From Bacillota bacterium (lineage in GTDB: Bacteria > Bacillota > Clostridia > Christensenellales > SZUA-584), in assembly GCA_023461435.1 (NCBI GenBank), contig JAEYLC010000031.1, forward strand, positions 23,126 to 87,125: a stretch of DNA of 64,000 nt, in the 5' to 3' direction. The position numbers were made by a program, and so were the translations under genes. Shown here one piece after another: positions 2-16,781 of the stretch (positions within the stretch are counted from its first letter, which is position 1; each line of letters begins with the position of its first letter). The notes under the pieces are model-generated. The model was not told the DNA's origin and ran no database searches. It saw only the letters and a list, made by a program, of their open reading frames with translations.

Positions 2-211
2 ATTCGGGCGGCCGTTTGCCACGACAACTTTTCCGCAGAACGGTCGCGGCTCAGTAACGACGCGAACGTGCTGTGCATGGGCGCGCGCGTGATCGGCATC
101 GAGCTCGCGAAGAAGATCACATCGGAATGGATCAGCCTGGATTTCGTTGACGGCAGTTCGACACCAAAGGTCAACGCGATCAAAGACATAGACGCCGCTA
201 ATTTTTGCTGA
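2..211 (+). CDS. RpiB/LacA/LacB-family sugar-phosphate isomerase, C-terminal fragment (5' part outside window)
   Basis: Absent from the ORF track because no start lies in the window. Frame 2 reads IRAAVCHDNFSAERSRLSNDANVLCMGARVIGIELAKKITSEWISLDFVDGSSTPKVNAIKDIDAANFC, then TGA at 209-211. The C.D..SA...R.HN.ANVL..GARVIG..LA pattern matches the C-terminal half of RpiB-type isomerases. Confidence 0.75.
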   Translation: MRAAVCHDNFSAERSRLSNDANVLCMGARVIGIELAKKITSEWISLDFVDGSSTPKVNAIKDIDAANFC

Positions 212-228
212 GAGGGAGGGGCGGGATA

Positions 229-1011
229 ATGAACAAAATGCTTTACATGGGCACGAACCTGAAAATGTACAAGACAACGAAAGAAACGGTTTCGTACCTG
301 ACAGAACTTGACGAATTAACACGGGACTTAGGCAGAACGGAACTCACCTTGTTTGTTATCCCGTCCTATACTTCTTTGGAAAGCGCGAGAAAATGCGTCC
401 CGCGTGAGGGCATCAAGCTGGGCGCTCAAAACATGTACTGGGAAGACCAGGGGCAGTTTACAGGTGAAATTTCGCCGCTCATGATCAAGGAAACGGGCGC
501 CGAGATCATAGAAATCGGGCACAGCGAGCGCAGGCATGTGATCGGAGAGACTGATCAGCAGGAAAACAAGAAGGTGCTTGCCGCATTGCGCCACGGTTTC
601 ACAGCCTTATTGTGTATCGGAGAAACAAAAGAGCAAAAAGATTTAAATATCAGCGATGAGATACTGAGCGCTCAGCTCAAAATCGGTCTGAGCGGGGTTA
701 AAAAGCAGGAGATCGGCCGGATCTGGATCGGATACGAACCGGTCTGGGCGATCGGGGTCAACGGGACCCCGGCCTCCGCTGAATACGCGGACGAAAAGCA
801 TGGCGTCATCAAGTGTGTGCTGAGCGAGATGTTCGGAGAAGACGGCGCGCAAATCCCGGTGTTGTACGGCGGGAGCGTCAATCCGCAGAACGCCTCGGAG
901 CTCATCGTTAAACAGAATATCGACGGGCTATTTGTCGGCAGGAGCGCGTGGAACGCGCCGGAATTCAACAGCCTGATCCGGCAAGTCATGCCTCTTTACA
1001 ATAGGAAATAA
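229..1011 (+). CDS. triosephosphate isomerase family protein (divergent paralogue)
   Basis: ORF 205-1011. ATG 229 follows GAGGGAGGGG. TIM hallmarks are present: GTNLKMY (Lys region), IEIGHSERR (catalytic His) and IGYEPVWAIG (catalytic Glu). The canonical AIGTGK is replaced by AIGVNGT. Confidence 0.85.
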   Translation: MNKMLYMGTNLKMYKTTKETVSYLTELDELTRDLGRTELTLFVIPSYTSLESARKCVPREGIKLGAQNMYWEDQGQFTGEISPLMIKETGAEIIEIGHSERRHVIGETDQQENKKVLAALRHGFTALLCIGETKEQKDLNISDEILSAQLKIGLSGVKKQEIGRIWIGYEPVWAIGVNGTPASAEYADEKHGVIKCVLSEMFGEDGAQIPVLYGGSVNPQNASELIVKQNIDGLFVGRSAWNAPEFNSLIRQVMPLYNRK

Positions 1012-1048
1012 CAAGCTGATTGTCATTAAAAAGAGTGGAGCAATAAAG

Positions 1049-1657
1049 ATGAGCGATTTTGGCAAATTAAAAGACGATATGATCCTTGCGGCCGCACGCG
1101 CCTATACCCGCGGTATTCAAACGGGCAGCGGAGGCAACTTCAGCGCGCGTGTGTCCGGCCAGGACCTGATGATCGTGAAGTCAAGCGGCGGCTCGTTTAT
1201 GGACGCCACGAGAGACAACCTGCTTGTGACGGACTTTGACGGCAATGTGGTCGAGGGAGAAGGAAAACCGACCCGGGAAGCGCTGCTGCACGGGTTCATC
1301 TATAAAATAGCCCCGCTGGTGAACGGTGTGATGCACTGTCACGCACCTTGGTCAATCGGCTGGGCGTATACCAAAAAGCCGCTTGACGGTGTGACGCTGC
1401 ATACGCAGCTCAAATTCGGCTGTCCCATCCATGTGCTCGATGTCAAAACGCCCATGGTGGAAGCTAAGGATTTTCCGCTCGTTCAGCAGCTTTTTGACGA
1501 GAACCCAAAGCTTCCGGCGTTTCTGCTTGTCGATCACGGCATTGTCGCGGTGGGTGACACGGTGATCAACGCGGAGCATAACGCCGAGCTGGTGGAAGAA
1601 ACGGCAATGGTCGCTTTCCTGAAGATCATTGCACGCACCAAGCTTCAGGAAGACTAA
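1049..1657 (+). CDS. class II aldolase/adducin-domain protein (FucA / L-ribulose-5-P 4-epimerase / tetronate-P decarboxylase-like)
   Basis: 202-aa ORF with GGNFSARV, EALLHGFIY and VMHCHAPW, a His-rich metal site typical of the class II aldolase fold. An RBS-like GAGTGGAG lies upstream. Confidence 0.85.
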   Translation: MSDFGKLKDDMILAAARAYTRGIQTGSGGNFSARVSGQDLMIVKSSGGSFMDATRDNLLVTDFDGNVVEGEGKPTREALLHGFIYKIAPLVNGVMHCHAPWSIGWAYTKKPLDGVTLHTQLKFGCPIHVLDVKTPMVEAKDFPLVQQLFDENPKLPAFLLVDHGIVAVGDTVINAEHNAELVEETAMVAFLKIIARTKLQED

Positions 1658-1732
1658 AAATGAAAAAACGCTGCCGGGAAAAATTGGCAGCTTAATCGAG
1701 TTTCCTAAATCAACAACATGTCTGCAAAGTGT

Positions 1733-1751
1733 GCTATTGTGAAACAATAGC
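1733..1751. promoter_or_regulatory. perfect inverted repeat GCTATTGT-gaa-ACAATAGC, candidate operator upstream of the ABC operon
   Basis: 8-bp arms with a 3-nt spacer, read directly from the sequence, about 55 nt upstream of the binding-protein start at 1805. The regulator is unknown. Confidence 0.4.
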
Positions 1752-1804
1752 AACGTACGGCGATTGGTGATTTAGGCCAAAAAAAAATGGGAGGAAGACA
1801 AAAC

Positions 1805-2992
1805 ATGAAGAGAGCAATGTTATTGACGCTCGTGCTGATGCTTGCAGTGGGCATGGCTTTAACTGGATGCAGCGCACCTTCGGAGAGCTCCGCGCCGGCT
1901 GAAAGCAGCGCAGCGGTATCGGAATCGGCCGCACCGGCTGATGAATCAGCGCCGGCTGAAACGAGCGAAGAAGCGGCACCGCAGGAAAGCCGTTCGGCAT
2001 TCTCTACCGATCTTCTGGCAAGCGAAGCTGACACCACGCCTGTTGACCCCGCCGAATTGCCCATAACGGGAATCGGACCTGAGGTGACCACCGATGTGAA
2101 AGCCAACGAGTCCTATAAGATCGCGATCGTTGTGAAGAACACCACAAACCCGTTCCTTCTCAAATCCATCGTCGGCGCGGAAAAAGCGGCCGCAGATATG
2201 GGCTTTGAATGCATCTCGCTGGCTCCGGCCACGCAGGACAGCCTGGAAGACCAGGTGAAGCTCATTGAAGATGCGATTCAGCAGGGCGTGCAGGGAATCA
2301 TTCTTCATCCGATCGATTCAAACGGCATCATGCCCGCGATCAGAAAATGTGACGAAGCCGGCATTCCCGTCGCCTGCATCGGCACACCCGCGGCCAACGA
2401 AACTTTCATGCGCACAGGCGTTGACTACACCGAGACAGGTGTGACAATCGCGACGATGGTGGCAGAGAAGCTCGGCGGCAAGGGCAAACTGATCATACTC
2501 GAGGGCCCTCCGGGAGCACAGAACGCGCAGGAAAGACTTGCGGGTATCAAAAAGGCTCTTGAAAGCTATCCCGACATCGAAGTTGTGGCTTCTCAGACAA
2601 CAAACTTCAAGAGAACAGAGGGTATGCAGGTCACAGAGAACCTTCTGCAAAAGTATCCTGATGTCAACGCGATCATCGGCTGCAACGATGAAAGCTCGCT
2701 TGGTGCCATTCAGGCGCTCAAGGCAGCCGGACTCGAAGGCAAAGTTGTGATCGGCAGCTTCGACGGCAACCAGGACGGCAGCGCGGCGATTAAGGCCGGT
2801 GAAATGTATGCGACATACAACGTTGACCCGGTTGGTTCCACATATCTGGCTGCGGCTTACATCGTGAAATTCCTGAACGACGGAACAATGCCCCCGAAAT
2901 ACTTTGTTCCCTTCCCGTCCACGCTTCAGGAACCTGTCATTACGGCTGAAAACATTGACAACTATATCGACAAAATTGCCTGGTGGAAATAA
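1805..2992 (+). CDS. sugar ABC transporter substrate-binding lipoprotein (CUT2/RbsB-like fold)
   Basis: ORF 1787-2992. ATG 1805 lies 8 nt after GGGAGGAAG. The signal peptide has lipobox LTGC, followed by a Ser/Ala/Glu/Pro-rich linker. A periplasmic-binding-protein type I core follows (KIAIVVKNTTNPF, GIILHPIDSN, IIGCNDESSLGA). Confidence 0.9.
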   Translation: MKRAMLLTLVLMLAVGMALTGCSAPSESSAPAESSAAVSESAAPADESAPAETSEEAAPQESRSAFSTDLLASEADTTPVDPAELPITGIGPEVTTDVKANESYKIAIVVKNTTNPFLLKSIVGAEKAAADMGFECISLAPATQDSLEDQVKLIEDAIQQGVQGIILHPIDSNGIMPAIRKCDEAGIPVACIGTPAANETFMRTGVDYTETGVTIATMVAEKLGGKGKLIILEGPPGAQNAQERLAGIKKALESYPDIEVVASQTTNFKRTEGMQVTENLLQKYPDVNAIIGCNDESSLGAIQALKAAGLEGKVVIGSFDGNQDGSAAIKAGEMYATYNVDPVGSTYLAAAYIVKFLNDGTMPPKYFVPFPSTLQEPVITAENIDNYIDKIAWWK

Positions 2993-3035
2993 CAGGGAAG
3001 TATAAGCTGGATAAGCTTTGATTCACGGGTGGTTC

Positions 3036-3063
3036 GCCCCGTCTCCTCCTGGTGAGACGGGGC
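3036..3063 (+). other. intercistronic GC-rich stem-loop after the binding-protein gene
   Basis: GCCCCGTCTC-ctcctggt-GAGACGGGGC, a 10-bp perfect stem with no U-tract. It sits between the SBP and ATPase genes, where such hairpins usually act as mRNA-stability or partial-termination elements. Confidence 0.5.
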
Positions 3064-3129
3064 CGGCCCCTGAGCTTTGAGTTTGTACAAATAAAAGCTA
3101 TGACCCATAGCAGCTATGAGGTGAGTAAT

Positions 3130-4633
<1,504 letters not shown>

Positions 4634-4644
<11 letters not shown>

Positions 4645-5599: not shown

Positions 5600-5609
5600 G
5601 AGGACAACC

Positions 5610-6569: not shown

Positions 6570-6682
6570 CAGTAAAATAAGCTCGGGCAGTGAGATAATG
6601 AGTGACTATAATATTGTATCCAGTATCACGAGATGGTATAATCTATGATTAGATGCAATAATAAACTCATAATATTTGGAGA

Positions 6683-7387
6683 ATGAATATGGAATTGTCG
6701 AATATTGAAAGATCTCAAAAAATTAAATATCAAAGAATGCCCGAGCTTGTGAAAGAGCAGCTGATGGACTGGATTATGGACGGCACGATTTCGATGGGCG
6801 AAAAGCTCAACGCCGAAGATCTGGCGTCCAGAATGGGTGTGAGCAGAATGCCGGTCAGAGAAGCGCTGAAAAGCATGGAGAAATCCGGCATTGTGCATTC
6901 CATTCCCTATGTGGGAACAAGAGTCGCCGAGCTTCAGATGACAGACATTGTTCAAATTTATCTGATGCGCGAGGCGCTTGAGCCGCTTGCCGCTTATTAC
7001 GCGTGCAAAAACATCACGGAATCAAAATTAAACGCTATTGAGAGCCTTCATTCAAGGCTTGAAAATGTGATCAGTGAGCCGACCCCGAACGCCAAGCAGA
7101 TATTCGTGCTGAACCGTGATTTTCATTTTGAAATCTACAATGCGAGCAATATGAAATACATGATCAACATCATCGCGACGCTTTGGGATAATCTCGCTTT
7201 TTACAAGCTGATCTACGGCCGAAAATATGCGACGGACAAAAACAGCGCGCTGGGTATGCTCGGCGAACACAAGGCATATATGGAGAACTTGAAAAACGGG
7301 CAGGCTAAAGAATTAAAAACCTTGATGCATGATTCGCTGCACCGGCGTGTGCTGGAGCTTAAGGATCAGGTCACATACGAGATATAA
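6683..7387 (+). CDS. GntR-family transcriptional regulator with FCD (FadR C-terminal) domain
   Basis: The N-terminal winged HTH reads LNAEDLASRMGVSRMPVREALKSMEKSGIV. The C-terminal part is helical (FH.EIY...). The start may be the ATG at 6689. Confidence 0.9.
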   Translation: MNMELSNIERSQKIKYQRMPELVKEQLMDWIMDGTISMGEKLNAEDLASRMGVSRMPVREALKSMEKSGIVHSIPYVGTRVAELQMTDIVQIYLMREALEPLAAYYACKNITESKLNAIESLHSRLENVISEPTPNAKQIFVLNRDFHFEIYNASNMKYMINIIATLWDNLAFYKLIYGRKYATDKNSALGMLGEHKAYMENLKNGQAKELKTLMHDSLHRRVLELKDQVTYEI

Positions 7388-7437
7388 ACATCAGGATTCA
7401 TTTTCATATGAGCCTGCCGCAAAGTTAAGGAGCAGAC

Positions 7438-7737
7438 ATGGACTACACAATGACGGAATGCGGAGGGTGCTTGACCTGCGAAATTGCATGCTCATATAAG
7501 CACAACAAAGAATTCAACCATCTCATTTCCAGCATTGAAATCGTTGAGCTGGAGAACGAACAGGGATACAAAGTACGCCTGATTGAAGACCCTTCAACGG
7601 GCAGAATACCATGCGACGGATGCCTCGGCAGTGAGCCGATGTGTCTTTCGTATTGTCCGAAACGCGAAGAATTAAAAGCGATCCTCGATCGGCACATTGC
7701 AGAGCGCATCAAGAAAGGGGAGAGCAAGCATGAATAA
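7438..7737 (+). CDS. small 2x[4Fe-4S]-type ferredoxin-like protein, probable electron-transfer partner of the AOR
   Basis: 99 aa with CGGCLTCEIAC (C-x2-C-x2-C-x3-C) and CDGCLGSEPMCLSYCP (C-x2-C-x6-C-x3-CP). Its stop overlaps the AOR start through ATGAATAA. Confidence 0.75.
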   Translation: MDYTMTECGGCLTCEIACSYKHNKEFNHLISSIEIVELENEQGYKVRLIEDPSTGRIPCDGCLGSEPMCLSYCPKREELKAILDRHIAERIKKGESKHE

Positions 7738-9661
7738 GTGTTACGGTATTACCGGCAATACGCTGCGCGTCAATCTGACAAGCAGAGAAATCAAGGTTGA
7801 GGACAACTCGGTTTATTACCGTGATTTTTTAACGTCGAGCGGCTACGCGGCGAAGATCATATACGATGAAGTGAAGGACTGGGTGACACCGTTTGATCCC
7901 ACAAACAAGGTGATCTTTTCGGCCGGTGCGCTGATCGGCACGGTGGCGCCCGGCGCGTGCAAGATGAACATCAGCACGATCGGCCCGATGACGGGCGGCT
8001 GGGCGACGGGCTCGAGCGACAGCTATGTGGCCATGGAGCTAAAGCACGCCGGATACGACGCGATCATCGTGGAAGGGCGCAGCCACAGGCCCTGCTATCT
8101 TTACGTGACCGACGAAAAGGTCGAGATTCGGGACGCGACGGCGCTATGGGGCAAAACCACGTGGGAGACGCTCGACGCGATACGCGAGGAGCTGCAAGAC
8201 CCCAAGCTGCATATCATATCGATCGGGCCGGCGGGTGAAAATCTCGCGCGCGGCGCCTGCGTGATACAGGACCGCGGCCGCGGCTTCGGCCGCTGCGGCA
8301 CGGGCGCGGTGATCGGCTCGAAGAATTTGAAGGCCATCGTCTGCAAGGGCAAAAAGCCGATACAGGTGGCCGATCCCGAAAAATTCATGCAGGTGGCGAT
8401 GCGCTGCCGCAAAAAGATCACTGATTGCCCCGAAACCGAACGGTTCCGCAAATACGGCACGCTCGGCATATTCCAGCACAAGCAGGATATGGGCGCGATC
8501 CCGTACAGGAACTCGCAGGAGAGCGTGTTCCCCGAGGATACGGATGTCACGATGGACCCTGTGCAGGTCATCGATAAATACACGGTTTCCAAGCAGAACT
8601 TCCCGGGTTGCCCGATCGGCTGCGGCCGCCACGTGACGATCGCGGACGGGCCTTACAAAGGGCTTACGGCGGAGTTCAACCATTGGGAGGCTTTTGGCAC
8701 CATCGTGGGCCGCTGCGCGGTGACCGAGCCCACGTTTATGGTGAAGGTGACGGCCTATTGCAACGAGATGGGCATCGATTTCAATCTGGCGGGCTGCGCG
8801 ATCGCGTGGGCGATGGAGTGCTATCAGCGCGGCATACTCACCAAAGAGGATACGGACGGCATGGCGCTTGAGTGGGGCAACGAACCCCAGATACTCGAGC
8901 TGATTCGCAAGATGAGCTATCGAGAGGGCTTTGGCAACATACTCGCGGAGGGCAGCAAGCGCGCAGCCGATATTATCGGCAGGGATTCGGGCTATTACGC
9001 GATGCACATCAAGGGGCAGGATCTCTATGAGTGTCTGCGCGGCTCCAACGCGTGGGCTCTGGGAGCCACGGTATCCACGCGCGGCGGCGGCCATACCACC
9101 GGCACCTGCGGCTATGAGCAGGCGATCAATGTGGACAAGGAAAAGGCATATCAGGTGCTCGGCATCCGGAACGTGGAAGATCCTTTAAGCTACGAAGGCA
9201 AGGCGGAGGTGACATATCTGTTTGAGGTGCTTCACCGCATCGACAACTCAACGGGCATCTGCCATCAGAACACGATATACAACAAGCTCGATTATCTCGT
9301 CGTGGCGGATATCGCGGAAATGCTGTCTGCGGCCACCGGCATCGAGATGAGCGCGCAGGACCTTGAGGACATCGCGCAGCGTCAGATCAACCTTGAGAAA
9401 GCGATTAACGCGCGCTTCACGGATTTTGCGCGTAAGGACGACCTTCCGACGCCGCGCGACCAGACCGAGCCGCTCCATGCGGGTAAAATGGACGGCTGGA
9501 AGCTCGATATGGATAAATACAACGGCATGCTCGACCGCTATTATGAGTTGCACGGCTGGGATAAGCAAACAGGTTATCCCAAACGCAGCACGCTCGAAAA
9601 GTACGGCATCGGCTATGTGGCCGATGAGCTCGAGCGCAGAGGCAAGCTCGGCCGGGAATAA
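7730..9661 (+). CDS. aldehyde:ferredoxin oxidoreductase (AOR) family, tungsten/molybdo-pterin enzyme
   Basis: ORF 7697-9661, with the internal ATG 7730 coupled to the upstream stop. The N-terminus GITGNTLRVNLTSREIKVED, the size (about 643 aa) and CPIGCGRH in the Fe-S/pterin region fit the AOR family. Confidence 0.85.
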   Translation: MNKCYGITGNTLRVNLTSREIKVEDNSVYYRDFLTSSGYAAKIIYDEVKDWVTPFDPTNKVIFSAGALIGTVAPGACKMNISTIGPMTGGWATGSSDSYVAMELKHAGYDAIIVEGRSHRPCYLYVTDEKVEIRDATALWGKTTWETLDAIREELQDPKLHIISIGPAGENLARGACVIQDRGRGFGRCGTGAVIGSKNLKAIVCKGKKPIQVADPEKFMQVAMRCRKKITDCPETERFRKYGTLGIFQHKQDMGAIPYRNSQESVFPEDTDVTMDPVQVIDKYTVSKQNFPGCPIGCGRHVTIADGPYKGLTAEFNHWEAFGTIVGRCAVTEPTFMVKVTAYCNEMGIDFNLAGCAIAWAMECYQRGILTKEDTDGMALEWGNEPQILELIRKMSYREGFGNILAEGSKRAADIIGRDSGYYAMHIKGQDLYECLRGSNAWALGATVSTRGGGHTTGTCGYEQAINVDKEKAYQVLGIRNVEDPLSYEGKAEVTYLFEVLHRIDNSTGICHQNTIYNKLDYLVVADIAEMLSAATGIEMSAQDLEDIAQRQINLEKAINARFTDFARKDDLPTPRDQTEPLHAGKMDGWKLDMDKYNGMLDRYYELHGWDKQTGYPKRSTLEKYGIGYVADELERRGKLGRE

Positions 9662-9681
9662 ATAAACTTAGGGATGATGAC

Positions 9682-10914
9682 ATGAAAACGATCGCGATCA
9701 TACTGAGCATAGACACCAAGGAAGCCGAAGCGCGGTTCCTCAAAAAATGCGTGGAGCAGCGCGGCCACAAGGCGCTCGTGATTGATCTCTCCACGCGAGG
9801 CACCTATGATTTCGTGCCCGATGTGACGCGGGAAGAAGTCTGCCTCGCGGGCGGAACGGAGCCGTCCGCGCTTGCGGGGATGCCGAAAAACGAGGCGGTC
9901 CAAGCGATGATGGACGGCGCAAAAGCCATCGTGCCGTATCTGTTTGCGAAAGGCGCTTTCGACGGCATCATCTCCGCGGGCGGCCTTCAGAACACGATGG
10001 CGGCGGCGGGCGCGATGCAAACGCTGCCCTTGGGCGTGCCCAAGGTGATGGTGTCTACGGTAGCCTGCGGCAACCGCAGCTTTGAGCCGTTCGTGGGCAT
10101 CAAGGATATCATCATGATCCCGTCCATCGCCGACATCACAGGCATCAACTCGGTGACCGAGGTGATACTCGGCAACGCGGCGGCCGCGGTGATCGGTATG
10201 GCGGAGCAGTCAAGGCTGCTCCCGAAGGACGGCAAAACGCGCATTGGTACCACGCTGATGGGCGTGACCAACAACTCGGCGGTGCAGGCGGCGCGTTTGC
10301 TTGAAGCGCAGGGCTATGAGGTGATCAGCTTTCATTCCACGGGCGTCGGCGGCAGGTATCTTGAATATCTGATCGGAGAAGGGCTCATTACGGCGTCAAT
10401 GGATCTCTCGCTGCATGAGGTGATCGCGGCGGATGTGTTCAACCTTGGGTTTTCGAACGGCGCACCGGGCAGGCTCAAGGTGGGCTGCGAAAAGGGCATA
10501 CCGATGGTCGTCGCGCCGGGCGCGCTCGATTTTGTGGACATGTATCTGGCGGATTTTAAAAACGGCATTATCGGCGACTGGACGCAGCGCAAGTACAATT
10601 TGCACAACAATGCGGTGGCGCATGTGAAGGCGTTCGCGCATGAATCGAAGAAAGCCGCAGAAATCGTTGTGGAGAGGCTCAATCAGGCAAAGGGTCCGGT
10701 CACGGTGCTGCTGCCGCTGCGCGGCTTGCGCGTGGATACGCTGCCGGGACAGAGCCTGTATGATCCCGAGGTGGACGAGACGATACTGGGTGTGTTCCGC
10801 GCGGGGCTTGACAAACGCATCAAACAGATCGAGGTGGACGCCAACCTCACGGATATGGCGTTCAGTGAAGCGGCGGCAGCAGAGATGGCGGCGCTCATCG
10901 AAAACAAGCAATAA
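9682..10914 (+). CDS. UPF0261 / Tm-1-like ATP-binding domain protein
   Basis: 410 aa. The family call rests on my recognition of MKTIAIILSIDTKEAEARFLKK...ALVIDLS and the overall two-lobe layout, not on a search. Confidence 0.6.
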   Translation: MKTIAIILSIDTKEAEARFLKKCVEQRGHKALVIDLSTRGTYDFVPDVTREEVCLAGGTEPSALAGMPKNEAVQAMMDGAKAIVPYLFAKGAFDGIISAGGLQNTMAAAGAMQTLPLGVPKVMVSTVACGNRSFEPFVGIKDIIMIPSIADITGINSVTEVILGNAAAAVIGMAEQSRLLPKDGKTRIGTTLMGVTNNSAVQAARLLEAQGYEVISFHSTGVGGRYLEYLIGEGLITASMDLSLHEVIAADVFNLGFSNGAPGRLKVGCEKGIPMVVAPGALDFVDMYLADFKNGIIGDWTQRKYNLHNNAVAHVKAFAHESKKAAEIVVERLNQAKGPVTVLLPLRGLRVDTLPGQSLYDPEVDETILGVFRAGLDKRIKQIEVDANLTDMAFSEAAAAEMAALIENKQ

Positions 10915-10928
10915 CAGGAGAGACGTCG

Positions 10929-12173
10929 ATGTATTTTGAACTTCCTTTTGATAACACGGTTTCAATCTCGGACGAAGATTATGTGATCGCGACTTATTTT
11001 GCGTTCGGCATCACGAACGCCGCGGCGCTCAAAAAAGCGGGCCAGTTTGCGACCGGGCAGAGCGTCGGCACATGGCTGCCGCTGCCCGGCGTGACGCAGG
11101 ACATGGTGGAAAACTGGCAGGCCCGCGTGCTCGCCGTGTATCCGCTGCCCACCGAGGAAAGCATTACCGTGCTGCGGGTCGCGTTTCCGCATCACAATTT
11201 TGCGTCGAGCTTCGCGATGATGCTGACCGCGATGGTCGGCAACGACGTATCCACGGCGCTGCGCATCAAGCTCGTGGATCTCGAGCTGACACCCAAGGCG
11301 CTAAAGGCTTACACAGGCCCGAAGCAGAGCATTGAGGGTTGGCGAAAAGCCACGGGCGTTTATGACAGGCCGCTCGTGCTCAACATGATCAAGCCGTGCC
11401 TTGGGTTCGCGCCGAAGCGCGGCGCAGAGCTGTTTTACCAGAGCGGGCTCGGCGGCGTGGATCTCATCAAGGACGACGAGGTGTTCGGCAACACGACGGT
11501 CAGCAGCGTGGCCGGGCGCCTGAAAGCATACAACGCGGCGGCTCGGCGGCTTAAAGAGGAAACGGGCAAAGCTCCGGTCTATATTGTGAATATCACGGAT
11601 ACGCCAAGACGCATGCGCGAGCATGCGCAGGCCGTGATCGGCGAAGGCGGAAAAGCAGCTATGGTCAATTTCGTGTCCACCGGCATTGACGCGCTGCGCG
11701 AGCTTACCGACGAATTCGGCGAAAAGCTCTGCTTCCTCGCGCATTACGCGGGTGCAGGCATGATGAATTCGCCGCAGATCGGCATTGCGGGCAATGTGAT
11801 GCTCGGTGTGCTGCCGCGACTGGCCGGTGCCGATTCTGTGATGACGATGTATGCGGGTTCGGCCGATACGCATGAGCTGTTTGAGTGCCTGCAGACGGTG
11901 CAGAAGCAGAAGCTGCCGATGGGCGGCATTAAGCCGGTCATGACCTCTCTCGGGGGCGGCATCACGCCGCTGTCTATTGGCAGCACGGCCAAAACCTTCG
12001 GCAACGACGTGATACTCGGCGTGGGCGGCGCGGTGCAGGGGCACCCGATGGGCACGACGGCGGGCGCCAAGGCCGTGATGGCGGCGCTCAGCGGCGCCAT
12101 GCAGGGCAAAGAGCTTGACGAGATTGCCGCAGGTTCGCCCGAGCTTCAGGCCGCGATCGACGCGTGGCAATAG
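10929..12173 (+). CDS. RuBisCO-like protein (form IV RbcL homologue, not a carboxylase)
   Basis: GGVDLIKDDE matches the RuBisCO GG.DF.KDDE carbamyl-Lys/metal motif. IKPCLG corresponds to IKPKLG. LGGGITP and GVGGAVQGHPMG match the two phosphate-binding loops. The catalytic His residues of the HIH region are replaced (RLAGADSVM). Confidence 0.85.
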   Translation: MYFELPFDNTVSISDEDYVIATYFAFGITNAAALKKAGQFATGQSVGTWLPLPGVTQDMVENWQARVLAVYPLPTEESITVLRVAFPHHNFASSFAMMLTAMVGNDVSTALRIKLVDLELTPKALKAYTGPKQSIEGWRKATGVYDRPLVLNMIKPCLGFAPKRGAELFYQSGLGGVDLIKDDEVFGNTTVSSVAGRLKAYNAAARRLKEETGKAPVYIVNITDTPRRMREHAQAVIGEGGKAAMVNFVSTGIDALRELTDEFGEKLCFLAHYAGAGMMNSPQIGIAGNVMLGVLPRLAGADSVMTMYAGSADTHELFECLQTVQKQKLPMGGIKPVMTSLGGGITPLSIGSTAKTFGNDVILGVGGAVQGHPMGTTAGAKAVMAALSGAMQGKELDEIAAGSPELQAAIDAWQ

Positions 12174-12211
12174 CGGGCAACAACCGGGTTTCAACTTAAG
12201 AGGTACATGAT

Positions 12212-13234
12212 ATGACATCACGAGATCGCATGTTAAAGACGCTGGCGCACGAGGACACGGACGTCGTTCCGATATTCCCGAAGATCGCGTTTTCCAATGT
12301 GATTGCGGCCAAGGGTATCACGGTCAGAGATTTCATGACCGACGCGGCCAAGATGGCCGAGGCGACGATGGCGGCCCAGAAGCTCTTCGGGTGGGATGCC
12401 GTCGCGCTGCATACCGATATCGGCAGCGAGGGCAAGGCGCTCGGCAGCGTTTATGAGCAGCCTGTGAACGCGCCCTCACATATCGTGAAATACCTGCTCG
12501 ACGATATCGGCGAGTGCGGGAAGATCGTCGTACCGGACCCGCATCGCACAGCGCCGATGAAGACGGTCATCGAAGCCGTCAAGATCGTGAAAGAGAAAAT
12601 CGGCCAAGAGGTTTATGTACAGGCATGGACGAACGGGCCGCTCAACGTGGCCAGCCAGATATTGAAGCTCGATGAGCTGCTTATCGCGGTCTATGACGAC
12701 CCGGACGCGCTGCACCTGGTGCTGGAGCGCTGTCTGGAAACGGCGGTCGTTTACGCGAGGGCGCTCGCAGAAGCGGGCGCGGACGCTGTGGCGTTTGGCC
12801 ATGCGATGGCGTCGACCTCGGTGATTTCGAGAAAGCAGTATGAGGAGTTTGCGCTCCCGTATGAAAAAGAGCTGATATCGGCGATCCATCAGGTCGGGGC
12901 GGCGGCCATCACGCATATCTGCGGCAACACCGAGCCGATTATCGACCTCATCGCACAGAACGGCAGCGATATCATCGATTTCGATCATGTCTGCCGCATA
13001 GACGTTCTGAGAGAAAAAGCGCCCGATAAGATATTCCGCGGCAACATCGACCCGGCGCTGCTTGCCCTGGGAACACAGGAAGAAGTCTGTGAGGCGGTCA
13101 AAGTACTGATGGCGGCGGACGGACGCTCCGGGCGGTTCATATTGGGCTCGGGCTGCGAGGTCGCGCTGAACACGCCGGTTGAAAACCTAAACGCGTTTGT
13201 GCAGGCGGGAAGGGAATTCGGAAAGCTCGGTTAA
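12212..13234 (+). CDS. uroporphyrinogen-decarboxylase (URO-D) family protein, MT2/MtaA-like subtype
   Basis: 340 aa with a URO-D-like N-terminus (RDRMLKTLAHEDTDVVP). It carries ITHICGNT and ILGSGCEV, an H-x-C...C arrangement typical of Zn-dependent MtaA/MtbA/MtsA-type methyltransferases rather than HemE (NLGHG). Confidence 0.7.
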   Translation: MTSRDRMLKTLAHEDTDVVPIFPKIAFSNVIAAKGITVRDFMTDAAKMAEATMAAQKLFGWDAVALHTDIGSEGKALGSVYEQPVNAPSHIVKYLLDDIGECGKIVVPDPHRTAPMKTVIEAVKIVKEKIGQEVYVQAWTNGPLNVASQILKLDELLIAVYDDPDALHLVLERCLETAVVYARALAEAGADAVAFGHAMASTSVISRKQYEEFALPYEKELISAIHQVGAAAITHICGNTEPIIDLIAQNGSDIIDFDHVCRIDVLREKAPDKIFRGNIDPALLALGTQEEVCEAVKVLMAADGRSGRFILGSGCEVALNTPVENLNAFVQAGREFGKLG

Positions 13235-13443
13235 CGTATAAGTAGATAAACGGCGCGCTGCGGTTTGGACTGCTGACAAAGTAAGTATCAAATGTAATTT
13301 TGAGTGAGCGATAGCGAAGCGAAAAATCCCATGTTCAAAGCGATTTACCATGGGATGCTATCCACTGTGTAGTCCGTCGCTTTGCATAGCAAATAAGGTC
13401 ATCAAGCTGGACCGCGTTGCGGTTCAGTATAAAAGAATATTTG

Positions 13444-13540: not shown

Positions 13541-13574
13541 AGCAGATCAGTTTGCATCCGCAAGCTGCTCATTG

Positions 13575-13606
13575 CCCTTTTCAAAATGGTTGAGAGGGGT
13601 TTTTTT
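13575..13606 (+). terminator. putative expression platform: terminator-like hairpin whose 3' arm is the RBS of the first gene
   Basis: CCCTTTT (13575-81) pairs with AGAGGGG (13593-99), including G-U pairs. A T7 run (13600-06) follows, then TTG 13608. GAGAGGGG is also the only plausible RBS. Confidence 0.45.
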
Positions 13607-13607
13607 A

Positions 13608-14648
13608 TTGAAAAAAGGCTTAAGGCCGATCGCCGTTTTGGGCATAATCGCCGTCATGAGCGGTCTTCTTATCGGCTGTGCAGCAGAAAAGCTTAAGGGC
13701 GATGCCGTGACTGCCGGTGAAATCGCATTAACGGGGCTGGCCGGGGGAGAGCGAGTCATCACAGTGGATGAGATCAAAAAGCTCGAACCGTTTGAGGGAC
13801 ATGTGGAAGGGGCAGACTCTCAAGGAAACGTGATTGAGACCGACATCAAGGGGGGGCGGCTCAGTGAGCTGCTCGCGCTTTATGGTATCAACCAAACCGA
13901 TTTAAACGGTATCCGGCTGACAGCGTCAGACGGCTATTCCATAGAGGTGCCGCATGAGATTCTGGCGCGGCGTGATGTGATACTCGCCTACGAGACGGAC
14001 GGTCAGCCGCTCGATAAGGACAACGCGCCTGTTCACGTGTTTATCCCCGAAGAAAGAGCGATGTACTGGGTACGCATGCTCAGCAAAATCGAAGTCATTG
14101 AGGCGGCGCTCGGCGAAACGGCGACGGGTGTGACCATCATGGAATCTGCTTATGACAAAAACGATTACACCGATTTTGAGCTGAACGGGCAGACATATGC
14201 GGCGCTCGATACGCGAAAAATTTTGGCTGACGGTACTGGCGCGGATACCGTGCGGATGCTTGCGGCGGACGGGCTTGAAAAGAACGAGACACTGGAGAAC
14301 TTTTATAAAGGCGTCATTCAGCTGGAGGGAGAAAATGCGCCGCAGTTTGCGTCCGATACATTGCCAATCGGCATGTCTGTGAAAAAGCTGCTGGTGATTC
14401 AAAGCGGCACGCAGGCATTTTACTTCTTAAGCAGCGCCGAAGCGACAGACGGATCGGTTAGTCTTGAAAAGATAGCGAAAGACTGCGGTCTTGCAGAGGC
14501 CGATGCGTATGTGCTGCGTTTTGATGATGGCGGCGAAAAAACGGTGACGCCTGAGGAGCTTAAGACATTGGCTGTGGGACCGGACGGCGAAATGCTCACG
14601 GAAGACGCACAGAAGAACCCCAAACTCATTTCGATTCAATTATTTTAG
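13608..14648 (+). CDS. lipoprotein with repeated molybdopterin-oxidoreductase-like (Oxidored_molyb fold) domains, function unknown
   Basis: ORF 13572-14648. TTG 13608 gives MKKGLRPIAVLGIIAVMSGLLIGC, a Sec-type lipobox without a twin-Arg. The region LSELLALYGI...IRLTASDGYSIEVPHEIL..RDVILAYETDGQPL...APVHVFIPEE.AMYWVRMLSKIEV resembles the YedY/sulfite-oxidase Moco-domain pattern. A second, weaker copy is present (MLAADGLEKNE...IQLEGENAPQF...VKKLLVIQ). Confidence 0.6.
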   Translation: MKKGLRPIAVLGIIAVMSGLLIGCAAEKLKGDAVTAGEIALTGLAGGERVITVDEIKKLEPFEGHVEGADSQGNVIETDIKGGRLSELLALYGINQTDLNGIRLTASDGYSIEVPHEILARRDVILAYETDGQPLDKDNAPVHVFIPEERAMYWVRMLSKIEVIEAALGETATGVTIMESAYDKNDYTDFELNGQTYAALDTRKILADGTGADTVRMLAADGLEKNETLENFYKGVIQLEGENAPQFASDTLPIGMSVKKLLVIQSGTQAFYFLSSAEATDGSVSLEKIAKDCGLAEADAYVLRFDDGGEKTVTPEELKTLAVGPDGEMLTEDAQKNPKLISIQLF

Positions 14649-14660
14649 GAGGATGATATA

Positions 14661-15137
14661 ATGACAAAAAAGCTTTTGACTGCGGTATTGATCACAATGA
14701 TGGTCGTCTCGGCGCTGGCGGCTTGCGCGCCTGCGCCTGCGCAAACAGAGCAGGCGGCGTGGTCCGTTGAAGTGAAGGGCGCGGAAAAGGATGCTTTCAC
14801 GAGCGCGGATTATGCGAAGCTCGATCCCGTCACCATCGACACGGTGCTCAAAACCAAGGACGGCACTCAGGCGGACGAAGCATGGCAGGGCGTGCTATTA
14901 AAGGATGTGCTTAATGAGCTGGGCGTGAAGGATTACACCTCCATAACGCTCGAAGCATCGGACGGTTACGCGAAAGACTATACGCCGGACATCGTGAATG
15001 ATGATCAGACGATACTCGGCACCGTTGTCAACGGAAAAGCGCTGACGCAGGAGGATGGCTATGTGTGCGCGGTTCCGGCCAGCCAGCCGGGCAACATGCG
15101 CGTGAAGCTGCTCGTGAAAATCACGGTCAATGAATAA
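14661..15137 (+). CDS. small lipoprotein, single Oxidored_molyb-like domain (paralogue of 13608 and 15698)
   Basis: AGGAGG RBS and signal peptide with lipobox LAAC. The region WSVEVKGA...WQGVLLKDVLNELGV...ITLEASDGYAKDY...ILGTVVNGKAL...MRVKLLVKITV follows the domain pattern. No Cys is present in the W.G region where Moco enzymes carry their ligand. Confidence 0.6.
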   Translation: MTKKLLTAVLITMMVVSALAACAPAPAQTEQAAWSVEVKGAEKDAFTSADYAKLDPVTIDTVLKTKDGTQADEAWQGVLLKDVLNELGVKDYTSITLEASDGYAKDYTPDIVNDDQTILGTVVNGKALTQEDGYVCAVPASQPGNMRVKLLVKITVNE

Positions 15138-15705
15138 GAAAAAAGGGCTTCTCGCGTCGTACTCGGCGCGCGATCTGATCAACATTGCGCTGTGCGCTGC
15201 GCTCGGCATTGCCGTGAAGCCCATACTGACACCGCTCGTTCATATCGTCACCGGGCCGCTGGTTGTCCCCGGAGGAGCCATGGCGGGCGGCTTGTATATG
15301 CTGTTCATCATTGTGCCTGTCGGGCTCACAAAAAAACATGGCGCATCAACGCTCACCTGCCTGGTGCAGGCGCTGCTCATGATGGTTACGGGTGTGCCCG
15401 GCAGCCATGGCGTATTGAGCCTCGTGACGTATGTGCTGCCCGGCGTGGCGGTAGATCTTATTTCATTGACGGCGGTTAAAAAGGGGCTGAATGCGTTCAC
15501 TTGCCTGATCTGCGGGCTCGCGGCCAACACGGTCGGCTCGTTTCTGTCGAATCTGGTGTTTTTCCGGCTGCCGCTTGTGCCGCTTATGCTGATGCTTTTT
15601 ACCGCGGCGCTGTCCGGATGCTTCGGCGGGCTGATTGCGTGGCAGCTGATCAAGCGGCTGCGGCGGTTTGCTCCGGCTGTGGGGAAGGGAGAATCGCATG
15701 AATAA
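15130..15705 (+). CDS. six-TM integral membrane protein, ECF-transporter S-component-like
   Basis: 191 aa. By eye there are six hydrophobic spans. The N-terminal ARDLINIALCAALGIAV resembles S-component starts. Its start overlaps the upstream stop (ATGAATAA). No EcfA/EcfT genes are in the window. Confidence 0.5.
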   Translation: MNKKKGLLASYSARDLINIALCAALGIAVKPILTPLVHIVTGPLVVPGGAMAGGLYMLFIIVPVGLTKKHGASTLTCLVQALLMMVTGVPGSHGVLSLVTYVLPGVAVDLISLTAVKKGLNAFTCLICGLAANTVGSFLSNLVFFRLPLVPLMLMLFTAALSGCFGGLIAWQLIKRLRRFAPAVGKGESHE

Positions 15706-16204
15706 AAGAGTCTGGCTGATGGCGGATATCATTTTGCTGCTGGCGGCCGGTGTCGCCGTGTTCGTAATGCTGAATGCGCAAACGCTGCCAAATGGCGGAA
15801 GCGATGCTGTCACCATCATACAAAATGACCAGACGGTGACCTTTGATATTGCGTATTTAAAGGGGCTGTCCAAAACGACGTTTACCGCAAATCTCGATAC
15901 CAACGGGCAGGACCCGGTGGAAAAAACCTTCGGCGGTGTGCCGCTCACCGATGTGCTCAAAGGCATGGGGTTTGATTTGAGCGGCGCGTCTCAGGTCGTC
16001 TTCAAAGCGTCAGACGGCTATTCGACGGTGGTGACGGCGGAGGAAGCAACGGATTCGGACAACGTTTATGTGGTTTATGAAAGGGACGGCAAGCCTTCGG
16101 GCACAATGGCGCAGGGCGGAACGGGCCCGATAGAGATCGTGATCAGAAAGGATGCGTTCTCCCAGCGCTGGTGCAAGTACCTGCGGGAGATTGACATCGA
16201 GTGA
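15698..16204 (+). CDS. membrane-anchored Oxidored_molyb-like domain protein (third paralogue)
   Basis: ORF 15668-16204. ATG 15698 overlaps the upstream stop (ATGAATAA). An N-terminal TM span (VWLMADIILLLAAGVAVFVML) is followed by FGGVPLTDVLKGMGF...VVFKASDGYSTVV...VYVVYERDGKP...GPIEIVIRKD...RWCKYLREIDI. Confidence 0.6.
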   Translation: MNKRVWLMADIILLLAAGVAVFVMLNAQTLPNGGSDAVTIIQNDQTVTFDIAYLKGLSKTTFTANLDTNGQDPVEKTFGGVPLTDVLKGMGFDLSGASQVVFKASDGYSTVVTAEEATDSDNVYVVYERDGKPSGTMAQGGTGPIEIVIRKDAFSQRWCKYLREIDIE

Positions 16205-16274
16205 GCGCGTCTTGCTTCAAGTGCCTGCTGTTTAGGGCAATTATTTCGCTGTACAATAATACTGGGAGCAGCTT

Positions 16275-16781
16275 ATGAAGATTTTCAGCATTGTGGGGTA
16301 CTCGCATTCGGGCAAAACCGCAACGGCGGCAGCGCTGATCAGGGAGCTGATCAGGCGCGGCTATACCGTCGGCGCGGTGAAGGAGAGCCACCACGCGATC
16401 AGAACGGATACGCAGGGGACGAATACCGATCTGCTGCGTCAGGCTGGGGCCGGTCTCGTCGCGGCCAGATCACAAAATGAAACGCATGTGTTTTTTGACG
16501 AACGGCTGCCGCTGAAGAACATATTGGCTTTTTTTGATTATGATTATGTGGTGCTCGAGGGCGTGAGCGATGTCGCAGTGCCGCAGATCGTCACGGCGGT
16601 TGACACAGAGGGCATTGAGGCAAAGCTCAGCGCGCAGACGTTCGCCGTCTCGGGCGTGATTTCAAAGACGCTGCGCGAATACAAGGGCCTGCCCGTGATC
16701 AACGGCCTCGCGGATACGGCGAGGCTTGCGGATTTCATTGAAGAAAAGGCCGTTATCTGGCGGAAAGATTGGGAAGAATAG
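16275..16781 (+). CDS. mobB: molybdopterin-guanine dinucleotide biosynthesis adapter protein MobB
   Basis: Matches the MobB pattern: MKIFSIVGYSHSGKTATAAALIRELIRRGYTVGAVKESHH (Walker A plus the KH.HH-like motif), then TDLLRQAGA. About 168 aa. Confidence 0.8.
   Translation: MKIFSIVGYSHSGKTATAAALIRELIRRGYTVGAVKESHHAIRTDTQGTNTDLLRQAGAGLVAARSQNETHVFFDERLPLKNILAFFDYDYVVLEGVSDVAVPQIVTAVDTEGIEAKLSAQTFAVSGVISKTLREYKGLPVINGLADTARLADFIEEKAVIWRKDWEE

Follow-up and report, generated by a model that had tools for sequence, protein, structure and literature searches.

A widespread bacterial gene cluster that pairs a RuBisCO-like protein with a UPF0261 protein and probably serves the catabolism of an acidic sugar

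The gene cluster described here encodes a RuBisCO-like protein (RLP) next to a UPF0261 protein and lies in a 64,000-nucleotide stretch of DNA, hereafter the window, from a Bacillota bacterium of the order Christensenellales (contig JAEYLC010000031.1, positions 23,126 to 87,125; assembly GCA_023461435.1). Its closest described counterparts are tetronate catabolism, the oxidative D-apiose pathway, the methionine salvage enzymes MtnW and MtnB of Bacillus, the UPF0261 kinase MarK, the Ula and Yia pathways of enterobacteria and the archaeal non-phosphorylative Entner-Doudoroff pathway. Comparison across genomes shows that nucleotides 2-13234 of the window are one lineage's version of a larger, widespread bacterial gene cluster, which probably breaks down an acidic sugar derivative. 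In the open-access literature we found no description of the cluster, of its RLP clade, or of a carbohydrate role for UPF0261.

Catabolism of the tetronates L-threonate and D-erythronate resembles the cluster in its acid-sugar substrate, in a kinase that makes a P-O-CH2-CO- group, in an Aldolase_II enzyme that leads to dihydroxyacetone phosphate (DHAP) or a ketose phosphate, and in the clustering of transporter and regulator genes (PMC12994016). OtnC and its kinase convert 3-oxo-tetronate and C5/C6 3-keto acids to DHAP, erythrulose-P or ribulose-5-P (PMC12994016; PMC12540250). The two differ in that OtnK is a DUF1537 protein whereas a UPF0261 protein takes the kinase place here, and the window cluster has neither an LtnD-type dehydrogenase nor OtnI; the cluster adds a lactonase, the RLP and an optional aldehyde:ferredoxin oxidoreductase (AOR), and for its class II aldolase-family protein (AldII) the OtnC model NF043034, with a cutoff of 250 bits, gives 73 bits. 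The oxidative D-apiose pathway (ApnL, OiaK, OiaC/OiaX, LerI, DerI) likewise clusters a lactonase, a kinase, an RLP, TIM- and RpiB-family isomerases and an RbsB-type solute-binding protein (SBP); the RLP reportedly works there with the TIM-type LerI and the RpiB-type DerI (Carter 2018, as cited in PMC6302742). Here, by contrast, the kinase and lactonase are of other families, the RLP reaches 152 bits against the 700-bit cutoff of the OiaX model NF042437, there is no apiose dehydrogenase or PdxA-type oxidoisomerase, and AldII, the AOR and a URO-D-fold protein are extra. The DUF1537 kinases OtnK and OiaK are said, from work by Zhang in 2016 and Carter in 2018, to create the P-O-CH2-CO- group. Judged on sequence, the cluster appears to work like the Otn and Oia acid-sugar pathways, but its kinase is of another family and its RLP and AldII fall below their cutoffs.

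MtnW and MtnB are the closest in RLP type (matches to 4nas at 5e-57 and 2zvi at 3e-49) and share both the pairing of an RLP with an Aldolase_II protein and Mg/carbamate enolisation of a monophosphate. They differ in that the cluster RLP has Asn in place of Lys98 of Geobacillus kaustophilus MtnW, that MtnK, MtnA, MtnX and MtnD were not found, and that the transporter and regulator here point to an acid sugar. MarK of Novosphingobium aromaticivorans, the first characterised UPF0261 enzyme, is an ATP-dependent kinase yielding ADP, in which Lys16 is activating and Gly195, His219 and His348 bind the acceptor (PMC12624787); as of 2025 it is the only UPF0261 member with demonstrated activity. The window protein belongs to the same two-domain fold family (3.5e-50 against PDB 9mpy) and keeps the equivalents of Lys16, Gly195 and His219, but the position of His348 is Asp or Val and the genomic context is one of sugar-phosphate enzymes rather than MarK's aromatic carboxylation genes. 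The Ula and Yia pathways share with the cluster a metallo-beta-lactamase (MBL)-fold lactonase, a kinase or phosphotransferase system (PTS) step, decarboxylation of a beta-keto acid, an AldII-family enzyme and a TRAP transporter variant; the cluster, however, has no UlaD/SgbH or UlaE/SgbU homologues, its lactonase is AiiA-like and not UlaG-like, and it adds the RLP, TIM, RpiB and AOR. The archaeal non-phosphorylative Entner-Doudoroff pathway, with its AOR-family oxidation of glyceraldehyde, also places an AOR in sugar catabolism with ferredoxin as acceptor, but here the host is bacterial, the AOR has a dedicated eight-cysteine partner, and the pathway is a phosphorylating one with an RLP and UPF0261.

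The window genes run in the order RpiB-TIM-AldII-SBP-ATPase-permease-permease-GntR-ferredoxin-AOR-UPF0261-RLP-URO-D (nucleotides 2-13234), with families assigned by Pfam and NCBIfam profile searches:

2..211, plus strand: RpiB/LacAB-family sugar-phosphate isomerase, C-terminal 69 residues, cut by the window edge (translation; 84% identity to the RpiB of locus L034)
229..1011, plus strand: TIM-family isomerase (PF00121, 4e-73)
1049..1657, plus strand: class II aldolase/adducin-family protein, AldII (PF00596, 7e-32)
1733..1751, no strand: perfect palindrome GCTATTGTGAAACAATAGC, candidate operator upstream of the SBP gene
1787..2992, plus strand: RbsB-like lipoprotein SBP of a CUT2 ABC system (PF13407, 2e-63)
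3052..4644, plus strand: ABC ATPase with two ABC domains (PF00005, two stretches)
4544-5599 (true start probably later) and 5610-6569, plus strand: two BPD_transp_2 permeases (PF02653)
6683..7387, plus strand: GntR-family regulator with FCD effector domain (PF00392 and PF07729)
7438..7737, plus strand: 99-residue, eight-cysteine ferredoxin-like AOR partner (Cys motif and adjacency to the AOR)
7730..9661, plus strand: likely gene, within open reading frame (ORF) 7697-9661, of an AOR-family enzyme, tungsto- or molybdopterin type (PF02730 AFOR_N, 1e-66; PF01314 AFOR_C, 2e-93)
9682..10914, plus strand: UPF0261 (Tm-1/MarK family) protein (PF06792 and PF23189; NF002674 above cutoff)
10929..12173, plus strand: form IV RLP (PF00016 RuBisCO_large, 1e-41, and N-terminal domain PF02788)
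12212..13234, plus strand: URO-D-fold, MtaA/CmuA-like Zn protein (PF01208, 9e-67; best NCBIfam model TIGR01463)

An earlier note, made on the sequence alone, had described the last six genes (6683-13234) as co-directional and tightly packed, and all six ORFs lie on the plus strand at those coordinates, spaced in order by +50, -8, +20, +14 and +38 nt. Five of the six family assignments are supported by Pfam and NCBIfam, the exception being the 99-residue ORF at 7438-7737. The TIM ORF opens at 205, its likely start being the ATG at 229, preceded by a GAGGGAGGGG ribosome-binding site; for the AOR the likeliest start is the ATG at 7730 with a GGGGAG ribosome-binding site, giving an 8-nt overlap with the ferredoxin stop. 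A promoter and terminator scan gave no signal above shuffled expectation.

To place these genes in a wider context, 80 genomic RLP loci were fetched (cited by L numbers, as are loci found through other cluster genes) and an alignment of 37 members of the RLP clade was used. The loci were scored with the window proteins and with representatives of other recurrent neighbours; simple ORF calling gave antisense 'shadow' ORFs at GC-rich loci, and presence or absence was read from the tblastn table. Neighbour percentages refer to the 36 loci that had adequate flanks and whose RLP shared 45% identity or more. AldII accompanies the RLP in 97% of these, UPF0261 in 94%, and RpiB, TIM, an MBL-fold hydrolase and the ABC ATPase in 83% each; the SBP (72%) and GntR (67%) follow, with URO-D (11%) and an orthologous AOR (8%) far less frequent. 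UPF0261 and the RLP are adjacent in 34 of the 36, which span four phyla (Bacillota, Acidobacteriota, Spirochaetota and Chloroflexota). The usual order, SBP-ATPase-permease-permease-[URO-D]-MBL-UPF0261-RLP-RpiB-TIM-AldII-GntR, is seen in Bacillota (Christensenellales, Oscillospiraceae, Selenomonadales), Acidobacteriota, Spirochaetota and Anaerolineae. The window order is a circular permutation of it, without the MBL gene and with ferredoxin and AOR placed before UPF0261. Its six-gene order recurs in L001/L081 and, minus URO-D, in L002, L004 and L035, and the conserved unit reaches upstream through the ABC transporter, AldII and TIM to RpiB.

The earlier note took its six genes to be functionally linked conserved neighbours, and the RLP-UPF0261 adjacency and recurring gene order bear this out; it had also assigned to one pathway with them, as a guess, the ABC system upstream, TIM and the aldolase at 1049, and these turn out to be the most conserved partners of the RLP, which bears the guess out strongly. 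The six genes are not themselves the unit, however: the AOR with its ferredoxin and URO-D are only accessories, and several clusters with an orthologous AOR or URO-D have no RLP. Chance juxtaposition was one of the outcomes that the note had named as undoing its proposal. Were the AOR/ferredoxin pair and URO-D to have landed by chance in an unrelated sugar operon, their absence from some 90% of RLP-anchored clusters would be expected, but synteny argues strongly against this: orthologues of the AOR (59-82% identity) and URO-D (49-60%) recur with UPF0261, MBL and AldII in varied order, beside varied transporters and in RLP-less clusters, and an unrelated second AOR lineage has been recruited to the same cluster type. 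We consider chance assembly extremely improbable.

The cluster consists of two modules. Module A comprises an anion or sugar transporter, the GntR/FCD regulator, MBL, UPF0261 and AldII, and module B the RLP, RpiB and TIM; the AOR with its ferredoxin, and URO-D, are accessories beside them. This scheme follows from the recurrence of the AOR and URO-D in varied contexts, among them RLP-less clusters in which their orthologues accompany GntR, a TRAP or CitMHS carboxylate transporter, a lactonase, UPF0261 and AldII. Distant RLPs (38-44% identity) retain the RLP-RpiB-TIM triad, which is partnered there by an Amidohydro_2 protein with a PEP-hydrolase-like protein and UPF0261, by an FGGY kinase, or by a Gat/SgaT-type PTS. 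Related clusters with RLPs 38-46% identical were also seen in cultured Clostridia, Megamonas and other taxa, under DeoR control; L048, L056, L071 and L078 are of the PTS type, and L059, L060, L065, L070, L072 and L080 of the Amidohydro_2 type (with a PF09370 PEP-hydrolase-like protein and UPF0261). The canonical type is carried by the cultured Pectinatus frisingensis and by a Hydrogenoanaerobacterium isolate, and distant types by Petroclostridium sp. X23, Clostridium magnum and Enterocloster lavalensis. In four Acidobacteriota loci (L010, L011, L015 and L050) a gene resembling NAD-dependent glycerol-3-P dehydrogenase takes the place of GntR right after AldII, which suggests DHAP or a DHAP-like ketose phosphate as the pathway product in those loci, and in L065 a transketolase gene adjoins the cluster. 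These genes, and the presence of TIM in most clusters, fit DHAP or ketose-phosphate products.

We read nucleotides 2-13234 as an inducible set of catabolic operons for an acidic sugar derivative, running a keto-aldonate/lactone pathway like OtnK/OtnC and OiaK/OiaC-LerI-DerI and ending in DHAP and sugar phosphates; we prefer this reading tentatively, rating it at slightly less than an even chance. As substrate we consider most likely a C4-C6 keto-aldonic acid, the gamma-lactone of such an acid, or the corresponding 'osone' at the aldehyde level. That the substrate is acidic is suggested by the GntR/FCD regulator, the usual lactonase, the TRAP (L082, L083) or CitMHS (L089) carboxylate transporters that accompany the MBL-UPF0261-AldII set in sister clusters, and the canonical cluster having no oxidoreductase; the last of these implies a substrate already at the keto-acid or lactone oxidation level. 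A sugar acid was one of the options in the earlier note, and given the GntR/FCD regulator, an MBL lactonase in 83% of clusters and carboxylate transporters in sister clusters it is the option that fits best. GntR is present in all AOR- and URO-D-anchored sister clusters. The 64 kb of the window contain the palindrome GCTATTGTGAAACAATAGC (8+3+8) a single time, 36 nt before the SBP gene. L001 and L002 have it at the corresponding position, and we regard it as a candidate operator of the GntR/FCD protein. The SBP of the L082 TRAP system had no PDB match at E<=1e-20, a strict threshold.

From gene families, motifs, synteny and modular co-occurrence we infer a substrate of this kind and the following catalytic steps and their order. 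The compound would enter through the RbsB-type ABC system under control of the GntR/FCD regulator, and in most lineages the MBL-fold lactonase would make the free acid; in the window lineage the AOR and its eight-cysteine ferredoxin would instead produce the carboxylate by oxidation of an aldehyde group, with ferredoxin taking up the electrons. UPF0261 would phosphorylate the primary hydroxyl beside the ketone, giving a P-O-CH2-CO-CHOH- unit, and the RLP, AldII and TIM would all recognise the P-O-CH2-CO- moiety. At its carbamylated-Lys/Mg site the RLP would enolise this monophosphate in a 2-oxo/3-oxo isomerisation, an epimerisation, or the decarboxylation of a branched beta-keto acid. An OtnC-like AldII would then release either CO2 or an aldehyde fragment, along with DHAP, a tetrulose phosphate or a pentulose phosphate, and TIM and RpiB would turn the products into glyceraldehyde-3-phosphate, erythrose-4-P or ribose-5-P for glycolysis and the pentose-phosphate pathway. 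The Zn URO-D-like protein would be an optional pre-processing enzyme.

The RLP keeps N105, K155, K181, D183, E184 and H272, the equivalents of RuBisCO N123, K175, K201, D203, E204 and H294, together with both glycine loops (GGG/GG) of the P1 phosphate site, and its K181-D182-D183-E184 carbamate/Mg motif is invariant in the 37 clade members. When aligned to form III enzymes (6hun, 2cwx) it has Cys157 at the K177 position and Tyr273 at R295, and neither His nor Lys at the H327/K334 positions, with loss of the residues for the P2 phosphate and CO2 addition. With the KDDE motif present and the residues for carboxylation of ribulose bisphosphate lost, it is classed as form IV and predicted to be non-carboxylating. 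The retention of the Mg/carbamate residues and P1 loops and the loss of the P2 and CO2-addition residues mark it as a putative metal/carbamate enzyme that enolises a monophosphate. It is about equally far from the Alicyclobacillus RLP (4nas), MtnW (2zvi), form III RuBisCO and the Chlorobaculum RLP. The earlier note had raised the possibility that it falls in an already characterised clade. MtnW models are the best-scoring of any RLP family yet below cutoff (NF007095, 258 against 409 bits; TIGR03332, 193 against 514 bits), as is the OiaX model, and by these NCBIfam cutoffs the RLP belongs to a clade without an assigned reaction, outside both MtnW and OiaX. No mtnK, mtnA, mtnX or mtnD, and no DUF1537 kinase or PdxA-type oxidoisomerase, appears in the Pfam lists of L081-L089 or recurs as a gene family in the 80 RLP loci, only some of which were Pfam-scanned.

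These results bear most directly on the suggestion of the earlier note that the substrate is a methylthio- or 5-deoxy-sugar, with the RLP carrying out MtnW- or Rhodospirillum rubrum-type chemistry and the MT2-like URO-D protein demethylating a methylthio product. The rank of the MtnW-type models (258 bits), a distant likeness of AldII to MtnB (71 bits) and the thiol-activating Zn ligands kept in URO-D would all suit such a route. However, the RLP reads GN105D where 2zvi and 4nas read GK, and N105 is invariant in 37 of 37 clade members; the lysine lost is Lys98 of the G. kaustophilus enzyme, at the RuBisCO N123 position, which we take to be the catalytic lysine of MtnW. Both the RLP and AldII are under the MtnW and MtnB cutoffs, MtnK, MtnA and a corrinoid protein turn up neither in the L081-L089 Pfam lists nor as a recurring family in the 80 RLP loci, just 11% of clusters carry URO-D, and a lactonase, carboxylate transporters and an FCD regulator are unfit for a neutral thio-sugar. 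The suggestion has therefore lost most of its ground and is very unlikely to be right. A role in the processing of autoinducer AI-2 (DPD), with the RLP as an LsrG analogue, was also considered and set aside, as it leaves the carboxylate transporters, FCD regulator and lactonase unexplained.

The UPF0261 protein matches PF06792 (1e-52) and PF23189 (6e-55) and scores 380 bits against the 335-bit cutoff of NF002674. Its acceptor probably differs from that of MarK, because the His348 equivalent is not kept, and from the sequence context is probably a carbohydrate hydroxyl. Where a PTS accompanies the RLP, UPF0261 is absent: it was present in none of the three loci with a PTS and in 48 of the 52 others (Fisher p=0.0013). 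This mutual exclusion fits action as a substrate kinase, and we propose that UPF0261 is the ATP-dependent substrate kinase of the pathway. The earlier note had seen in it the only ATP-binding candidate for a kinase, and the role of pathway kinase agrees with the MarK precedent and with its absence exactly where a PTS is present. We also considered an aromatic or phenolic substrate, as for MarK, O-demethylases and aromatic AORs, and rejected it, since the conserved surroundings consist of sugar-phosphate enzymes together with an SBP of RbsB type, and the equivalent of MarK His348 has not been retained.

AldII lies below every NCBIfam equivalog cutoff (L-ribulose-5-P 4-epimerase/AraD, OtnC, MtnB and FucA), its best match being the L-ribulose-5-P 4-epimerase subfamily. 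Its Zn-binding His triad (H96, H98, H163) is invariant and the Glu equivalent to FucA E73 is kept, while Thr-Arg replaces the phosphate-binding Ser-Ser of FucA. We propose that it is an OtnC-like decarboxylase, or an aldolase, acting on a P-O-CH2-CO- substrate. The second of these possibilities leads to a different account of the same locus with the same kinase, in which AldII is a true aldolase that splits a ketose or keto-acid 1-phosphate into DHAP and a short hydroxy-aldehyde (glycolaldehyde, glyceraldehyde, glyoxylate or tartronate semialdehyde), the AOR oxidises this aldehyde downstream with electrons going to ferredoxin, and the RLP and RpiB act upstream as carbonyl-shifting isomerases that make the ketose-1-P. 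This is the order of steps in the earlier note without its sulfur chemistry. The FucA-type Glu and Zn triad of AldII are in keeping with it, as are the adjacency of AldII, ferredoxin and AOR in L082, L083 and L047, the optional nature of the AOR, as expected of an enzyme that disposes of a by-product, and the TIM and glycerol-3-P dehydrogenase-like genes that point to DHAP; the wider AOR-ferredoxin family is moreover found beside polyol and hydroxy-acid genes (Zn-dependent alcohol dehydrogenase, LtnD-like dehydrogenase, BKACE). It does not explain the lactonase and carboxylate transporters unless the aldehyde fragment bears a carboxylate, nor why lactonase loss is specific to the lineage with both AOR and RLP, and the replacement of the FucA Ser-Ser also speaks against it. 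We regard this account as unlikely, though it is the strongest of the alternatives.

The cluster MBL protein resembles lactonases (AiiA, 7.5e-26; 4-pyridoxolactonase, 6.7e-24), with no UlaG-family match, and the window lineage has no MBL lactonase gene in its cluster. UlaG is an MBL-fold lactonase and UlaF and SgbE are AldII-family epimerases, and 2,3-diketogulonate enters E. coli through a TRAP system. For L-ascorbate, dehydroascorbate or their breakdown products as substrates, a counterpart of the Ula/Yia pathway made of non-orthologous enzymes can be drawn up, with the MBL protein as a UlaG-like lactonase, UPF0261 in place of the PTS or LyxK, the RLP or AldII decarboxylating 3-keto-L-gulonate-6-P, AldII as a UlaF/SgbE-like epimerase, RpiB and TIM finishing the route, and the AOR taking threose- or xylosone-type aldehydes. 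The best NCBIfam match of AldII, although below cutoff, the TRAP variants among sister clusters, the EIIC-GAT/SgaT-family PTS of distant RLP clusters and the occurrence of clusters in gut and soil anaerobes are compatible with this idea. With no UlaG-family match for the MBL protein, no UlaD or UlaE homologues and no explanation for TIM in a C6 route, however, we think it improbable.

Both isomerases of module B score like ordinary TpiA and RpiB. For TIM the paralogue-type models PRK14905 and PRK15492 rank highest in NCBIfam, and the TpiA model NF000722 was narrowly passed (303 against 293 bits); the RpiB of L034 (PF02502) exceeds the TIGR01120 cutoff, and its DerI match reaches 142 bits against a 240-bit cutoff. 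RpiB and TIM stand beside the RLP in the canonical order, each in 83% of loci, which is a contextual resemblance only to LerI and DerI. An anaerobic variant of oxidative D-apiose/apionate catabolism ending in erythrose-4-P would give these two the LerI (TIM) and DerI (RpiB) roles, with apionate made by the AOR or by a dehydrogenase and lactonase, UPF0261 replacing OiaK, and the RLP acting as an OiaC-like decarboxylase that yields erythrulose-1-P. The RLP-TIM-RpiB triad, the most universal feature over the 38-100% identity range of the RLP family, argues for it, and so do an Amidohydro_2 protein in the distant clade, presumably of the same family as the apionate lactonase ApnL, the presence among the PDB matches of the SBP of 5ibq, which we take to be an apiose-binding SBP, and the many hosts that degrade plant polymers. 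Set against this are the RLP score far below the OiaX cutoff, an unexplained AldII, and the finding that a PdxA-type oxidoisomerase is missing from the L081-L089 Pfam lists and from the recurring families of the 80 RLP loci and that the canonical cluster has no dehydrogenase (zinc alcohol dehydrogenases occur in a few variant loci), so that apionate could not reach the 3-oxo level. Taken as a whole this variant is quite improbable. Ascorbate-derived compounds and apiose/apionate are nonetheless the most concrete substrate candidates, although neither covers every gene.

The AOR has its best PDB matches in 9mqx and 1aor (about 1e-96) and is 35% identical to the AOR of Pyrococcus furiosus, as compared with a reference sequence that reproduced the 1aor match. 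E320, H455 and D505..C511 (DxxGxC) align with P. furiosus E313, H448 and C494; we take E313 and H448 to be the catalytic Glu and His, and DxxGxC to be the pterin-binding motif. The canonical CxxCxxxC...C [4Fe-4S] ligand set is incomplete, with Phe291 at the position of P. furiosus C288 and C294, C298 and C511 kept, and an extra invariant Cys189 is present in a GRCGTG loop. Because this pattern is shared across a 21-sequence alignment, cluster ligation in this AOR subfamily may be non-canonical. The 99-residue partner has no Pfam match and weak DmsB/HybA-type NCBIfam matches, and is called ferredoxin-like on account of its eight-cysteine motif (C8, 11, 14, 18 and C59, 62, 69, 73, invariant in six orthologues) and its conserved adjacency to the AOR. 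A homologue adjoins most AORs of 42-95% identity; none was detected at several AOR loci, mostly on short or truncated contigs.

Wherever flanks are readable, AOR orthologues at least 75% identical occur only in UPF0261-containing clusters, and orthologues of 59-82% identity are found in MBL-UPF0261-AldII clusters without an RLP. These are L082 and L083 (GntR-TRAP(DctPQM)-MBL-UPF0261-AldII-ferredoxin-AOR), L084 (MBL-ABC-GntR-ferredoxin-AOR-UPF0261-RpiB-TIM-AldII) and L085 and L086 (cofactor genes-ferredoxin-AOR-GntR-ABC-UPF0261-MBL-AldII). At 42-60% identity the AOR-ferredoxin pair occurs in many other transporter, polyol and hydroxy-acid contexts, so the tight link to the cluster holds for the clade at or above 75% and some deeper members (L085, L127). 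A second AOR, about 31% identical to that of the window, lies inside otherwise canonical MBL-UPF0261-RLP clusters (L047, 5558-7441; L055, 4431-6314) and looks, from its sequence, like an independent recruitment to the same pathway type. A general rule that the AOR replaces the lactonase was considered and rejected, since both co-occur in L082-L086, L047 and L055; it holds only in the window lineage.

URO-D scores 189 bits against the 235-bit cutoff of the MtaA/CmuA model TIGR01463. Its Zn ligands HxC...C are kept, in that 'tHiCGn' and 'gsGCE' align with the ligands of 4ay7, positions that we take to be the MtaA-type zinc ligands. The orthologue group is sharply bounded, at 44-100% identity followed by a fall to 38% or less, and in the places looked up its members lie in L087/L088 (near-identical contigs with canonical clusters) and in L089, all of this cluster type; L089 has no RLP and reads GntR / AldII-MBL-UPF0261-CitMHS-AldII-URO-D. 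No corrinoid or B12-binding protein was found near any URO-D orthologue examined. Its earlier description as an MT2-type protein stands as far as the zinc ligands go, but at 11% of clusters, and never with a corrinoid protein, it is an accessory of the cluster.

Several points weigh against acidic-sugar catabolism as drawn above. L084, in other respects a match for the window, does without the RLP. With AldII under all equivalog cutoffs, it could be a decarboxylase, aldolase, epimerase or dehydratase. With TIM and RpiB scoring like ordinary TpiA and RpiB, LerI- and DerI-like roles for them are conjectural. The SBP is by sequence of the neutral-sugar type; of the E. coli ribose-binding pocket it retains only a part, with D89, R90, N64 and Q235 changed. 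The exchange of lactonase for AOR is limited to the window lineage and may be a single evolutionary event, and the required keto-acid or lactone oxidation level narrows the natural candidates.

Further genes of the window touch on the cofactor supply of the AOR and on the limits of the operon:

13572..16781, plus strand: AOR-associated set of three Oxidored_molyb-domain proteins, an ECF S-component-like membrane protein (PF09819) and MobB (Pfam)

This set co-occurs with the AOR in L001, L002, L083 and L143, with EcfA, EcfA' and EcfT added in L083, and two of the three Oxidored_molyb proteins carry lipoprotein signal peptides. It probably supplies cofactor or metal to the AOR, outside the catabolic chemistry, and may form an ECF-type system, not described before, that serves the uptake or maturation of the metal or cofactor of the AOR. 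No transporter specific for tungstate was identified. The 337-nt gap between it and URO-D (13235-13571) holds a 63-residue ORF (13350-13541) without a family match and short inverted repeats (13326-13356 and 13336-13384), and is probably an operon boundary. A small RIO/APH-like kinase-fold protein follows MobB (16815-17525, plus strand), with homologues behind the equivalent genes in L001 and L002 and directly after the RLP in L008. On the minus strand, 17773-22656 encodes a 1627-residue protein whose calcineurin-like metallophosphoesterase domain is N-terminal and precedes Ig-like, Big_2 and InlB B-repeat domains; it is a probable cell-surface phosphoesterase. Some 12-21 kb downstream lie a DUF4147/MOFRL glycerate-kinase-like gene (25160-26515, plus strand), a transaldolase/FSA-family gene (31122-32300, minus strand) and an FGGY kinase gene (33388-34878, minus strand). 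A glycerate kinase would suit a glycerate-making AOR; no synteny evidence ties the genes at 25160-34878 to the cluster.

In this cluster known superfamilies have probably been combined into a new pathway, for which new RLP chemistry is a realistic prospect. It is possible, though rather short of probable, that it represents an undescribed, widespread anaerobic pathway in which an RLP with a reaction new to its superfamily, the enediol isomerisation or decarboxylation of a phosphorylated keto-acid sugar, works with a UPF0261 carbohydrate kinase and with a tungsten AOR and its dedicated eight-cysteine ferredoxin, so that the oxidation of sugar aldehydes would reduce ferredoxin in a bacterium. 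New chemistry on the RuBisCO scaffold has come to light with every RLP function resolved to date (MtnW, the R. rubrum isomerase and OiaC/OiaX), and the present clade numbers hundreds of members, found in anaerobes of gut, soil and subsurface. For UPF0261, a very large family, conserved operon partners offer a direct route to native substrates, and the role proposed here would, if true, be its first physiological role in sugar metabolism. A tungsten-type AOR in a bacterial sugar-acid operon would tie carbohydrate catabolism to low-potential ferredoxin, and the modular variants of the cluster (lactonase or AOR, UPF0261 or PTS, with or without the RLP, and ABC, TRAP or CitMHS uptake) provide a comparative framework.

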